Below, piece by piece: positions 13,008 to 25,993 of a stretch of DNA of 64,000 bases (positions are counted from its first letter, which is position 1; each line of letters opens with the position of its first letter). Origin of the DNA: Candidatus Aminicenantes bacterium (GTDB lineage: Bacteria > Acidobacteriota > Aminicenantia > Aminicenantales > Saccharicenantaceae); contig CAWJKR010000009.1 in assembly GCA_963843505.1 (NCBI GenBank), positions 102,506 to 166,505 of the forward strand, written 5' to 3'. Both the position numbers and the translations under genes were made by a program. The notes beneath the pieces are model-generated. The model was not told the origin of the DNA. It ran no database searches and saw only the letters and a list, made by a program, of their open reading frames with translations.

Positions 13008-13173
13008 CCTGGACTATTCATAAAAACGCCGGTTTTCTCAGTAAGGCAAGAAAACCCAAGACCGGCGTTTTTAGCCCTTCGGGCAAACCGATCCGGCCGC
13101 ATCTGCTGTCGTTGGAGCCAAGATGGCTCACGCCATCGCATCTGCAGCCGCCTCGGCTCGTGAATAATCCAGG
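13008..13173 (-). mobile_element. MITE-like non-autonomous element, copy A (166 bp, 13-bp terminal inverted repeats)
   Basis: Left end CCTGGACTATTCA, right end TGAATAATCCAGG (12/13 complementary). Reverse complement of copy B at 25830-25993, differing by 8 substitutions and 2 one-nt indels in my manual alignment. Flanks are CCAA / CTAA. Confidence 0.7.
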
Positions 13174-13271
13174 CTAATTGCCCGGCCGCGCTTCCGAGAA
13201 AATGGCGTGACGCCGAGCGTCTATCTGAACGGGCCGCAGGCGTCCGCTTGACAGATTGGAGGAGACATGAT

Positions 13272-13535
13272 ATGGCTAGCCATATGAAAACAACCATACA
13301 TATTCCCGATAGCCTCTTCGATGAGGCCAAAAAGGCCGCCCATCAGGAGGGAACGACGCTGAAAGCCCTGGTCGAAGAAGGCTTGAGGAAGGCCTTGGAG
13401 GAACGGCGGGGCCGGGGCCAAACCGCTTTCAAGCTCCGCGACGCGTCTTTCAAGGGCCAGGGATTGCAGCCTCATCTCGCGGGCGTGACCTGGGACCAGA
13501 TCCTCGACATCAGCTACGAAGGACGCGGCGGATGA
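13272..13535 (+). CDS. vapB: VapB-type antitoxin
   Basis: MKTTIHIPDSLFDEAKKAA is the typical small VapB-family start. GGAGGAG RBS. 4-nt ATGA overlap with the downstream PIN gene. The start could also be 13281. Confidence 0.75.
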   Translation: MASHMKTTIHIPDSLFDEAKKAAHQEGTTLKALVEEGLRKALEERRGRGQTAFKLRDASFKGQGLQPHLAGVTWDQILDISYEGRGG

Positions 13536-13969
13536 TCGCGGTCGACAGCAACATCCTCGTGTACGCCCACCGCGAGGATTCGCCGTGGCACGACGCGGCC
13601 GACGAATGCGTTCGGACGCTTGCCGAAGGCCGCGCGGCATGGGCCATCCCCTGGCCCTGCCTCCACGAGTTCCTGGCAGTCGCGACGCACCCGCGGATCT
13701 ACGCCCCGCCGACACCGCTCGATCTCGCCGTCGACCAGGTCGAAGCCTGGCTCGGGTCGCCGAGCCTGGTCCTGCTGGGAGAGGGCGCCGGCCATTGGAC
13801 GCGGCTCAGCGCCCTCGTTCGAGGCGGGCAGGCCGCCGGCCCCAAGGTCCATGACGCGCGCATCGCGGCGATCTGCCTCGAGCATGGCATCGAGGAGTTG
13901 TGGACGATCGACCGTGACTTCAGCCGATTCCCCGCTCTCCGCGTCCGCAATCCGCTGAAAACGGCCTGA
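13532..13969 (+). CDS. vapC: PIN-domain toxin VapC
   Basis: MIAVDSNILVYA (first acidic residue)...DARIAAICLEHG...TIDRDF, typical of a PIN domain. Translationally coupled to the antitoxin. Confidence 0.85.
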   Translation: MIAVDSNILVYAHREDSPWHDAADECVRTLAEGRAAWAIPWPCLHEFLAVATHPRIYAPPTPLDLAVDQVEAWLGSPSLVLLGEGAGHWTRLSALVRGGQAAGPKVHDARIAAICLEHGIEELWTIDRDFSRFPALRVRNPLKTA

Positions 13970-13989
13970 GCCGGTCTTTCGGCGCCGGC

Positions 13990-14673
13990 TCAGTTGGGGC
14001 CGCGGCAGTCGCGGACGCAGATGCCGCAGATGAACTGGGTCGTGTAGCCCTTCTTGCGGAAATCCTTGAGCGTCTCGTAGCAGGCTTTGTGGTCGAAGGC
14101 CTCCCGGGTGTCCTTGATGGCCCCGGCCGGGCAGGCTTTGGCGCAGGCGCGGCAGGCGCGGCAGTCCCGGTCGAGCGGGGCGCCCGCCTCGAGCGGCATG
14201 TCCGTGAGAACGGTGACCAGCCGGAAGTGCGCCCCGAGCTCCGGGTTGACGAGCAGGTTGTTGCGGCCGAACCAGCCCAGGCCGGCCGCCCTCCCGACGT
14301 GCTTGTGCGAGACGTGGGCCCGCTGGTTCTCCCAATCGATGATCTGCGAGGCGGCGATGGCCAACGACCGGGCTCCCCGCTTCTGGATGTGGTCGGCGAG
14401 GACGAGGGCCCCGCGGTCGAGAAAGAAGTTCATCTGCCGGTAATGGTGGAAGTAGATCGACGTGGGGCGGTCGCGGATGTCATCGAGGACGCCGTCGCTC
14501 AGGCGCTTGCCCAGAGACACGGCCAGCCCGAAGCGGTCGCGGGTCTCGGGCTCGAGCAGGAAGCCGGCCCTGAGAGAGGTGACGTCGGCGACGCCGAAGA
14601 GGTCGAAGCCGAGGCCCTGGGCGAGGGCCTTCAGCTCCTGGGTATTCGCCGCCTTGTCCATGTGCGCCGCCAT
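13990..14673 (-). CDS. QueG-like / reductive-dehalogenase-related 4Fe-4S protein (short form)
   Basis: N-terminus GFDLFGVADV. Two Cys clusters (CRACRACAKACPAGAI and CGICVRDC). GGGAGGGAGG RBS upstream of the ATG at 14673. Shorter than the canonical QueG as I remember it. Confidence 0.6.
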   Translation of the reverse strand: MAAHMDKAANTQELKALAQGLGFDLFGVADVTSLRAGFLLEPETRDRFGLAVSLGKRLSDGVLDDIRDRPTSIYFHHYRQMNFFLDRGALVLADHIQKRGARSLAIAASQIIDWENQRAHVSHKHVGRAAGLGWFGRNNLLVNPELGAHFRLVTVLTDMPLEAGAPLDRDCRACRACAKACPAGAIKDTREAFDHKACYETLKDFRKKGYTTQFICGICVRDCRGPN

Positions 14674-14872
14674 TCTATCGGCGCCTCCCTCCCCTGTCAA
14701 ACCGACGCTCAACTGGCTGGAACATTCGGCGTCAGCACCAGCCAGTCGACCGGAGGCTTCGCCACCGGGGCATCGGAGAGTTCTTGACTTCGGTTCATTG
14801 CGCGCCTAACCTAGGGGGCAGATTGGGAACCTGACGAGCATCTGGATCATGCTTCGCGTTTATTATTCCGTC

Positions 14873-14904
14873 TTCCTTCCTTCCTTCCTTCCTTCCTTCC
14901 TTCC
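14873..14904. repeat. Tetranucleotide microsatellite (TTCC)x8 in the divergent queG-like / RHS intergenic region
   Basis: Eight perfect tandem TTCC units read directly from the sequence, about 165 nt upstream of the RHS start codon. Confidence 0.95.
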
Positions 14905-25000: not shown

Positions 25001-25418
25001 CCGCCTCGAGCACGCTGCGCGAGCTCGGCGACGCGGACCCAGCACTACCGGGCCTCGCTCAAGAGCGTCACGGCGCCGCACCAGGACATCCTCGATTCCA
25101 TCAAGGCCCTCGAAACGAAGCTCGAAAGCGCTCCAGCTGAAGATGTACGGCGACCGGCTCCTCTCGCGCGCTCGACAAGGACACCTACCCTGGCGATCGC
25201 CGACCCGCGTCGATGCGGATCGCCGGCGAGCAGGCCGAATCGACCTCGGCCCCGACCAAGACGCAGCGCGACGCCTACGCCATCGCCGAGGAGGAGTTCA
25301 GGCCCGGTCTACGAGGAGCTGAAGAAGATCCTGGCCGAGGACGTCGCCGGCCATCGAGAAGCGGCTCGACGCCGTCGGCGCGCCCTATACGCCGGGCCGG
25401 CTTCCCGACTGGAAATAG
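22074..25418 (+). CDS. BNR/sortilin (VPS10)-like beta-propeller glycosidase-like protein with signal peptide; more than ten apparent frameshifts
   Basis: SGGVWKTVNAGTTF, GVYKSEDGGASWKNVG, LYKTTDGGKTWTAI, TEDGGANWRKI, STDLGKTWTSI and LDGGKHWKKLG repeats, recoverable only by hopping among all three + frames. Final stop at 25416-25418 (…GRLPDWK*). Confidence 0.7.
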
Positions 25419-25421
25419 AGA

Positions 25422-25476
25422 CCAGACCTCGGACCGGGAGCACGTACTCAGGTACATGTCCCGCCCCGAGGTCTGG
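25422..25476 (+). terminator. Long imperfect hairpin directly after the BNR-like gene stop (no T-tract)
   Basis: CCAGACCTCGG (25422-25432) pairs perfectly with CCGAGGTCTGG (25466-25476). Inner CGGGA/TCCCG and GTAC-containing pairs lie in the loop. Confidence 0.3.
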
Positions 25477-25638
25477 CTGCGATGGCCCGTTGCCCCCCCG
25501 GGGCGGCCGCAGAGGCCCGAGTTTCCCGACCTGCAGGGTCAAATCCGACTTTTTTTGTAGGAAATGAAACCTTTTCCCGCGGGGAAGCGTCTAAAGGGAT
25601 GTATGAACAGAAAGAAGATATGAAAGAGGAGACAACCC

Positions 25639-25788
25639 ATGAAGATCAGAACGAAAGTCGCCATATTCCTGATCGCCACCGTCCTGTCGCTCGCCGGCTA
25701 CGGCGTCCTGGCCAACGCCCTGTCTGCTGACCGGGTCATGGCCGCGGCCAGGCCGACGACCGTGATGTCCGTCCACGTCACGAGCTAA
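25639..25788 (+). CDS. Small (49 aa) signal-peptide-bearing ORF, hypothetical
   Basis: AAAGAGGAGA RBS 6 nt upstream of the ATG. MKIRTKVAIFLIATVLSLAGYGVLANA followed by a 22-aa tail. Not in the track because it is under 60 aa. Confidence 0.4.
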   Translation: MKIRTKVAIFLIATVLSLAGYGVLANALSADRVMAAARPTTVMSVHVTS

Positions 25789-25829
25789 TCGCCTCAAGTC
25801 CGACGGCGCGCCCAGACACTCATCCCTAA

Positions 25830-25993
25830 CCTGGATTATTCACGAGCCGAGACGGCTGCAGATGCGATGGCGTGAGCCATCTTGGCTCCAACGAAGCAGG
25901 TGCGGCCGGATCGGCTTGCCCGTAGGGTAAAAACGCCGGTCTTGGGTCTTCTTGTCTTGCTGAGAAAACCGGCGTTTTTATGAATGGTCCAGG
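25830..25993 (+). mobile_element. MITE-like non-autonomous element, copy B (164 bp)
   Basis: Ends CCTGGATTATTCA ... TGAATGGTCCAGG (11/13 complementary). Perfect 4-bp CTAA on both flanks. Inverted relative to copy A. Confidence 0.7.

Follow-up and report, generated by a model that had tools for sequence, protein, structure and literature searches.

Two inverted IS1380-type miniature elements around a toxin-rich locus of Candidatus Aminicenantes as probable separate insertions

Introduction

A 64-kb stretch of a Candidatus Aminicenantes genome (contig CAWJKR010000009.1; G+C 63%), here called the window and numbered from its first letter, carries two inverted copies of a short non-coding element, A and B, on either side of a 12.6-kb stretch with vapBC, an RHS toxin gene and a BNR-like gene. 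The locus raises the question of whether the pair brought these genes in. A sequence-only reading of the window had described the geometry of a composite transposon-like structure, built from an IS5-like derivative and open to mobilisation in trans. Our comparison points to a different history, in which a 164-166-nt miniature inverted-repeat transposable element (MITE) of the IS1380 type was very probably inserted twice and separately, and the 12.6-kb stretch between the copies is chromosomal rather than the cargo of the pair.

The repeat pair

A repeat search of the whole window returned one long inverted pair only, 13008-13176 / 25827-25993, whose arms are 97% (13109-13176/25827-25894) and 93% (13008-13076/25925-25993) identical, which bears out the two inverted copies of about 165 bp in the sequence-only reading. 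The copies are separated by 12.65 kb, and their MAFFT alignment over 166/164 nt gave 8 substitutions and 2 one-nt indels (~94% identity), exactly the count made earlier by hand; the 2 indels are not to be over-read because the window probably has long-read indel errors. The 13-bp terminal inverted repeats (TIRs) assigned to each copy are likewise present, since the 0-mismatch matches of the 13-nt TIR CCTGGAYYATTCA in the window are the four predicted ends only, and a 26-nt core is confined in the window to A and B (expected 0). On the + strand the flanks read CCAA-A-CTAA and CTAA-B-CTAA, in agreement with the C[C/T]AA flanks and the perfect duplication at copy B that had been reported.

No open reading frame (ORF) is confined to either copy, and those that occur are chance frames running through. 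Folding compared with shuffled sequences gave z = -6.5 and -8.4, on either strand, and the predicted fold consists of three hairpins: AAAAACGCCGG...CCGGCGTTTTT by the left TIR, a small one of GCCC/GGGC, and a long one that is imperfectly paired. A known RNA gene as the identity of the repeat is ruled out by Rfam and tRNA scans of the window, which returned no matches. The parts of the pair are as follows.

13008..13173, + strand: MITE copy A, 166 nt; the left end is the TIR and a terminator-like hairpin, the right end is CTCGGCTCGTGAATAATCCAGG
13008..13020, + strand: left TIR of copy A, CCTGGACTATTCA
13161..13173, - strand: right TIR of copy A, CCTGGATTATTCA (- strand); extended by the adjoining 9-10 nt, it agrees with the right inverted repeat of IS1380-family elements
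13021..13073, no strand: hairpin of copy A, AAAAACGCCGG...CCGGCGTTTTT, with an A-run and a T-run, bidirectional terminator-like
13004..13007, no strand: left target at site A, CCAA, which occurs once in the empty sites of the relatives L049 and L050
13174..13177, no strand: right target at site A, CTAA, with 1 mismatch to CCAA, then 1 extra T compared with L049
25830..25993, - strand: MITE copy B, 164 nt; its hairpin and left end face the TPR-aspartyl protease (TPR-Asp) gene, 45 nt off
25826..25829, no strand: left target duplication at site B, CTAA; a single CTAA in L049
25994..25997, no strand: right target duplication at site B, CTAA

Empty sites and synteny with relatives

Orthologous loci were fetched using the TPR-Asp protease as the conserved anchor, and genes were called by Pfam and NCBIfam profile matches. 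The gene order of the window is FBPase, M24 peptidase, DUF362, MITE A, vapB-vapC, a 4Fe-4S protein gene (Fe-S gene), RHS, a 176-aa ORF, BNR, MITE B, TPR-Asp and peptidase C69. Three relatives, designated by their locus labels, carry the decisive comparison.

L049 (ENA ERZ25039554 contig_6474): the closest relative; 94% protein and ~95% (93-96%) nucleotide identity; both MITE sites empty
L050 (JGI 3300027818): ~92% nucleotide identity; both MITE sites empty
L051: 78% protein identity; DUF362 adjoins the Fe-S gene directly, without vapBC, RHS/BNR or MITE

In L049 the order is FBPase, M24, DUF362, vapB, vapC, Fe-S, a 49-aa ORF, TPR-Asp and C69. Window positions 13008-13178 are precisely absent from its site A, which reads GACCAA/TGCCC (the slash marks the junction), and at site B positions 25830-25993 are precisely absent, a single CTAA replacing CTAA-MITE-CTAA; site B is also empty in L051. 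Because both L049 sites are precisely empty, each MITE appears to have arrived alone after the split from L049. The DUF362 and Fe-S genes adjoin in L051 (junction at 8451-8487), which makes genes inside and outside the pair ancestral neighbours. As vapBC is found in L049 and L050 without MITE A and is absent from L051, it is an older, separate insertion that predates both MITEs.

The remainder of the enclosed stretch varies on its own. L049 is without window positions 14704-25540 (RHS, immunity gene and BNR) and has 58 nt in their place. The order in L050 is vapBC, Fe-S, small ORFs that include orphan RHS C-terminal/immunity cassettes, an intact 1108-aa BNR gene and TPR-Asp; its RHS/BNR segment is thus partial, with no long RHS body. 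Judged by these alignments, the RHS/BNR region is a hot-spot of toxin cassettes that varies separately and does not depend on the MITEs. Between the copies the segment has the same orientation as in the relatives; it has thus not been inverted by the repeats. L049 also has a private truncated MITE at 8815-8903 (left end and hairpin, ~90 nt) between vapC and the Fe-S gene, at a site that is empty in the window; this private copy at a third site indicates that the family was active after the L049 and window lineages had split.

The MITE family and its target

An exact search with the left-end 25-mer in a species-representative genome collection gave 50 matches in 48 loci, which belong to seven Candidatus Aminicenantes metagenome-assembled genomes (MAGs) and one contig labelled Eubacteriales; by the exact 25-mer alone, one MAG accounts for 27 loci and another for 8 loci (9 matches). 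The right-end 22-mer was found at at least 120 metagenome loci, and some 170 related copies were retrieved in all, from seven Aminicenantes MAGs and many metagenome contigs, while a scan of viral contigs with the left end gave 0 matches. The family, whose termini are written CCTGGAYTATTCA...TGAATRRTCCAGG, falls into size classes of 79, ~125, 139, 160-166, 186-189 (the commonest) and ~255 nt with common ends and different internal modules, and the minimal elements of 79 nt have a left-type TIR at either outer end, the two being inverted. The subfamily of the window is nearest to copies of MAG MFD00905.bin.1.6. Copy L019, from another genome, shares 96.4% identity with A and 95.2% with B, and because A and B, at 94%, are no closer to each other than either is to this copy, they would stem from different source copies.

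Both are short (164/166 nt) and non-coding, with TIRs and a 4-bp duplication that is fixed in length, and their family has many dispersed copies and precise empty sites. A and B are true copies of a MITE whose family is abundant in Candidatus Aminicenantes genomes. No description of the family or of its IS1380-type ends turned up in the literature searched: no paper there relevantly linked Aminicenantes with MITEs, and among the papers that mention both IS1380 and MITEs none has the two in its title or abstract. The family appears previously undescribed, and the phenomenon itself is ordinary.

Flank statistics were taken from 106 unique complete copies and compared with shuffles. The left flank has the composition C59/T35, T84, A82, G65/A34, i.e., C/T-T-A-G/A. 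Identical 4-mers stand on both sides of 35 of the 106 copies (10.7 +/- 2.7 when shuffled), and the outer positions of the 4-mer agree in 74/106 and 72/106 against about 47.7 +/- 4.5. Since the outer variable positions agree beyond the shuffles, the duplication is of 4 bp with a YTAR preference, and the MITE-like, TIR-bounded, non-coding character and the YTAR-type duplication proposed from the window gain the support of a multi-copy family. A TA (2-bp) duplication with longer TIRs or within a CTAG site is excluded by the co-varying outer bases of the 4-mer.

Several retrieved sequences share only parts of the element. Metagenome contigs L117, L143 and L148 (G+C 0.47-0.54) have elements of ~290-400 nt with an unrelated interior, the same 13-nt left TIR type and a 22-nt right end identical to that of the window MITE; because these elements carry the same ends, the right end appears to be common to several MITE families in different organisms. 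Elements of 375-400 nt on some of the lower-GC metagenome contigs have nothing in common with the window MITE beyond the TIR and the ~22-nt right end. Other loci that match by the right end only are further MITE families or fragments, e.g., L083 by an ATP-grasp gene. The single contig labelled uncultured Eubacteriales (L010, CAZIQR010000049.1) matches the left end exactly once, with a short degenerate copy behind it, and may be a mis-binned Aminicenantes contig.

IS1380-type ends

The right end of the MITE, CCTGGATTATTCACGAGCCGAGG, is conserved over ~22 nt and fits the ends of IS1380 elements closely. A blastn search of plasmids with it gave 21-22-nt matches with at most 1-2 mismatches, and in five of the six plasmid records that were inspected the match lies ~160-180 nt downstream of an IS1380-family transposase gene. 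The five plasmid IS1380-family elements with matching ends comprise three complete insertion sequences (ISs) and two that are cut off or truncated. The full-length ones, with ends CCYGRATWATKCAYGA, are on Acidiphilium, Lichenicola and Pseudanabaena plasmids and are given here with flank and left end, then right end and flank.

Acidiphilium multivorum pACMV1 (NC_015178.1, 136631-138249): 1619 bp; CTAG, CCTGAATTATGCACGAGG; GCTCGTGAATAATCCCGG, CTAG
Pseudanabaena galeata: 1629 bp; TTAG, CCTGAATTATGCATGA; CTCGTGAATAATACAGG, CTAG
Lichenicola cladoniae: 1623 bp; CTAG, CCCGGATAATTCG; CTCATGAATTATCCAGG, CTAG

About 16-18 of the first 18-20 nt of the MITE end are identical to the IS1380-family ends (compared ends: MITE CCTGGATTATTCACGAGC, pACMV1 right inverted repeat CCGGGATTATTCACGAGC, Lichenicola CCTGGATAATTCATGAGC). 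The transposases of the plasmid ISs match Pfam PF13701 with E = 1e-133 to 1e-163, and one of them scores 391 bits on NCBIfam NF033539 transpos_IS1380 (cut-off 180). Two transposase clades that are only ~32% identical yet keep the same ends suggest that the end sequence is an old feature of this IS1380 branch. According to the ISfinder tables, elements of the IS1380 family have CC ends and a 4-5-bp duplication and those of the IS5 group have GA/GG ends. The MITE ends start with CC and its duplication falls within 4-5 bp. Given the CC start, the matching ends and the same CTAG-type duplication, we assign the MITE to the IS1380 type: on these terminal features it is most likely a non-autonomous element with IS1380-type ends and target duplication. 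The full-length ISs with the same TIRs that the sequence-only reading had proposed to look for thus exist as IS1380-family elements in plasmids, and none was found in the Aminicenantes DNA examined.

An origin from an IS5-group element, as suggested from the YTAR-type duplication, is very doubtful, even though that duplication was confirmed. Papers on IS elements of E. coli and on IS711 of Brucella reportedly name YTAR among target motifs, and the motif is linked with IS5 and IS711. The ends of the MITE, however, start with CC and not with GA/GG, some 16-18 of their nucleotides align with the ends of IS1380-family elements that have the same CTAG duplication, the full-length elements found with matching ends are all of the IS1380 family, and no IS5-type transposase was found near any retrieved copy. 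IS701 was considered because of its exact 4-bp duplication and rejected, as its published end consensus (---YACT-Y--YR) fits loosely only.

The Shinella oryzae plasmid pZ25 (L175, 2481-2518) also contains a right-end-like sequence, GCTCGTGAATAATGCAGG/CTAT. Nothing homologous to IS1380 transposases was seen within 2.5 kb of it, and in this proteobacterial plasmid the sequence may represent a solo end or a MITE.

Origin of the pair

In the history that we hold to be very probable, each copy would have entered an intergenic, promoter-proximal region on its own, at a YTAR-like tetranucleotide and with a duplication of 4 bp. The MITE would have been moved in trans by a DDE transposase of the IS1380 family, encoded at some other place, that recognised its ends of ~13-22 nt, in a cut-and-paste or copy-out reaction with a staggered 4-bp cut at YTAR. 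The 12.6-kb stretch would be layered, with an ancestral Fe-S gene, an older vapBC insertion and the separately variable RHS/BNR hot-spot, and the inverted geometry would reflect nothing more than a high copy number. Another copy lay only a few kb away in 10 of 77 loci (those of at least 6 kb, centred on the copy), i.e., in about 1 in 8, with 5 inverted and 6 direct pairs. Because about one copy in 8 has a neighbour within several kb, such pairs are expected and the arrangement in the window is not unusual.

Some observations weigh against this history or its IS1380 part. The duplication at site A is imperfect, CCAA/CTAA with one extra T, whereas that of copy B is perfect (CTAA/CTAA), and the window probably carries long-read indel errors, which make small differences uncertain. 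The individual E-values of the plasmid matches are weak (0.9-3), so that the IS1380 argument rests on the repeated position of these matches at IS ends. An autonomous IS1380-type element with these ends was not found in 1.18 Mb around the ~170 copies or in the window: tblastn of three IS1380 transposases against all retrieved loci and the window gave no match, no transposase was detected near any retrieved copy, and the ORFs adjoining TIRs cluster as host genes only. In all loci, TIR pairs 300-3500 nt apart have only host genes inside (ACT/ExbD in L015; others in L021 and L044), and solo left ends are truncated copies by host genes, with no full-length IS. Because no autonomous partner was found in Aminicenantes DNA, mobilisation in trans by a resident transposase is something that we infer rather than observe.

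The pair would have to be read otherwise if the inverted MITEs bounded a compound element of 13 kb that brought in the vapBC-RHS-BNR block or mobilises it now. The geometry is compatible with this, as the outer ends are both left-type TIRs in inversion, as in the 79-nt minimal elements, and IS1380-family transposases (ISEcp1, ISPme1) mobilise adjacent DNA by surrogate ends (PMC9330008). Two copies do flank a segment; a single outer duplication, and a unit that is present or absent as a whole, were not found. Each copy has instead its own target duplication and none surrounds the whole unit, L049 and L050 keep the interior genes while each site is precisely empty, L051 has genes from inside and outside the pair as ancestral neighbours, the variation of the RHS-BNR part is independent of the MITEs, and no second occurrence of the block was seen. 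With relatives that keep the gene order without the elements, a mobilised composite block is highly improbable, and as the origin of the block it is refuted. The pair is in principle a competent compound element, and there is no sign of its ever having moved as one. Syntenic relatives without the elements thus exist alongside further copies and ISs with the same TIRs, and the existence of the latter two argues for two independent insertions of a real mobile family and not for a chance repeat.

A local inverted duplication or recombination instead of transposition would account for copies that are close together and inverted, and for nothing else. The separate target duplications, the precise empty sites, a 6% divergence between A and B (copies from other genomes are at least as near to each of them), and a gene orientation between the copies that is as in the relatives, without inversion, make it barely conceivable. 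We further considered a wider reading, in which an undescribed, recently active superfamily of IS1380/piggyBac-like MITEs shares the ~22-nt end across phyla without a detectable resident partner, and its inverted pairs could be moved as units by a transposase family known to carry neighbouring DNA along. It is very unlikely; if true, MITE pairs would be occasional vehicles of toxin or defence islands in uncultured phyla.

A look-alike "composite" occurs in another Aminicenantes MAG (L015, 882-2277): two housekeeping genes, one with an ACT domain and one ExbD-like, lie between a MITE fragment and an inverted full MITE (plus a further partial copy), and CTAG stands at either outer side.

Possible regulatory role of the hairpin

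Independently inserted copies could still have been recruited by the genes next to them, as insulators or as terminators of transcription in both directions, a role that is compatible with two separate insertions and that we consider unlikely. The A-run/T-run hairpin is conserved in every size class including the 79-nt minimal one and is predicted to be terminator-like, 12 copies have both sides of one stem position changed from A-T to G-C, and both copies in the window lie 45-75 nt upstream of start codons. Neither insertion is conserved, however, since the closest relatives lack both, and the compensatory stem change perhaps comes from a single lineage. As modelled, the hairpin may act as a bidirectional intrinsic terminator, and from their position 45-75 nt upstream of starts the copies may affect the expression of the adjacent genes. 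A sigma-70 promoter scan of both insertion sites detected none.

Comparison with known systems and significance

The MITE shares with the ISs of the IS1380 family, of which ISEcp1 and ISPme1 are the studied members, the CC start of the ends, their nearly identical first 16-18 nt and the CTAG/YTAG duplication. It differs from them by its 164-166 nt without a transposase gene, by an interior (terminator and long hairpin) unrelated to that of the ISs, by a left end that shares 13 nt only, and by having no full-length partner found in Aminicenantes. Bacterial MITEs such as Correia, RUP, ERIC and the IS-derived cyanobacterial ones are likewise small, structured, non-coding and TIR-bounded with a duplication of fixed length, and they too are intergenic, reach dozens of copies per genome and are polymorphic between close strains, whereas the Aminicenantes family has other TIRs, another target and another host phylum. 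IS5-group elements and their MITEs also make a 4-bp YTAR duplication but have a different terminal sequence (GA/GG against CC), and the MITE ends bear no similarity to theirs.

Inverted copies bracketing cargo-like toxin genes recall the Tn5/Tn10 compound transposons and the ISEcp1/ISPme1 transposable modules; here, in contrast, the duplications surround each copy, the would-be cargo is syntenic chromosomal DNA, and there are empty sites. Members of the IS1380 family such as ISEcp1 and ISPme1 move adjacent DNA via surrogate ends (PMC9330008), and IS1380 transposases form the prokaryotic outgroup of the piggyBac superfamily (PMC10813416). CC-type termini and a palindrome-like 4-bp duplication are common to piggyBac (TTAA) and the MITE (YTAR/CTAG). 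PiggyBac is, however, eukaryotic with a TTAA target, and the kinship is by analogy through IS1380 alone, there being no MITE transposase to compare.

The analysis removes the tempting inference that a compound transposon carried the toxin-rich block, and it shows that synteny and empty sites settle cases of composite versus independent insertion. It also puts on record, for the uncultured phylum Aminicenantes, a MITE family of high copy number and recent activity, and connects this family with transposition of the IS1380 rather than the IS5 type. The family could be of use in repeat annotation, in quality control of MAG assembly and binning, and in using insertion polymorphism to type strains. 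Since MITEs, and the way they insert, are familiar, the practical significance is modest.

Genes inside and around the pair

Of the enclosed genes named in the sequence-only reading, vapBC, RHS with its downstream ORF and the BNR-like gene were found; the match of the Fe-S gene to QueG stays below the QueG cut-off.

10583-11901, strand not stated: M24 peptidase gene, frameshift-split; 420 aa and intact in relatives
11900..12936, - strand: DUF362 gene, outside the pair, with a Tat-type signal, frameshift-split; start at 12936, 72 nt from copy A
13248..13969, + strand: vapB-vapC toxin-antitoxin genes, VapB and PIN/VapC toxin; vapC TIGR00028, 104 bits
13990..14712, - strand: QueG/RDH-like 4Fe-4S gene, below the QueG cut-off
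14971..21934, + strand: RHS toxin gene (2143 aa, Rhs_assc_core domain) and 176-aa ORF; G+C 0.47-0.58
22074..25567, + strand: BNR/sortilin-like gene, frameshift-split; 1108 aa and intact in L050
26039..27481, + strand: TPR-aspartyl-protease gene, outside the pair, start 45 nt from copy B; followed by peptidase C69

The 176-aa ORF downstream of RHS is a putative immunity gene without a family match, and the tip of RHS together with this gene has a G+C of 0.47-0.49 against ~0.68 around. The orthologues of M24, DUF362 and BNR in L049, L050 and L051 are intact (420, 318-353 and 1108 aa), and the frameshifts in the window suggest long-read indel errors of the assembly, pseudogenes being less likely. 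The idea that MITE A and vapBC split a single Fe-S/DUF362 gene is excluded, because DUF362 has its own Tat N-terminus and the Fe-S gene its own stop, and they are two separate genes in L049 and L051.

Farther downstream, a 4.7-kb low-GC island (30083-34767; 0.44-0.57) stands where L049 has a methyltransferase gene, and it holds an S8 subtilase gene (30286-32331), a 311-aa ORF, an AraC-type HTH gene (33572-34315) and an IstB_IS21 fragment (34369-34695). At 45397-46360, six 144-nt tandem units with 61-74% identity lie in a gene of the 7-bladed lactonase beta-propeller family and are probably protein repeats rather than a DNA element.

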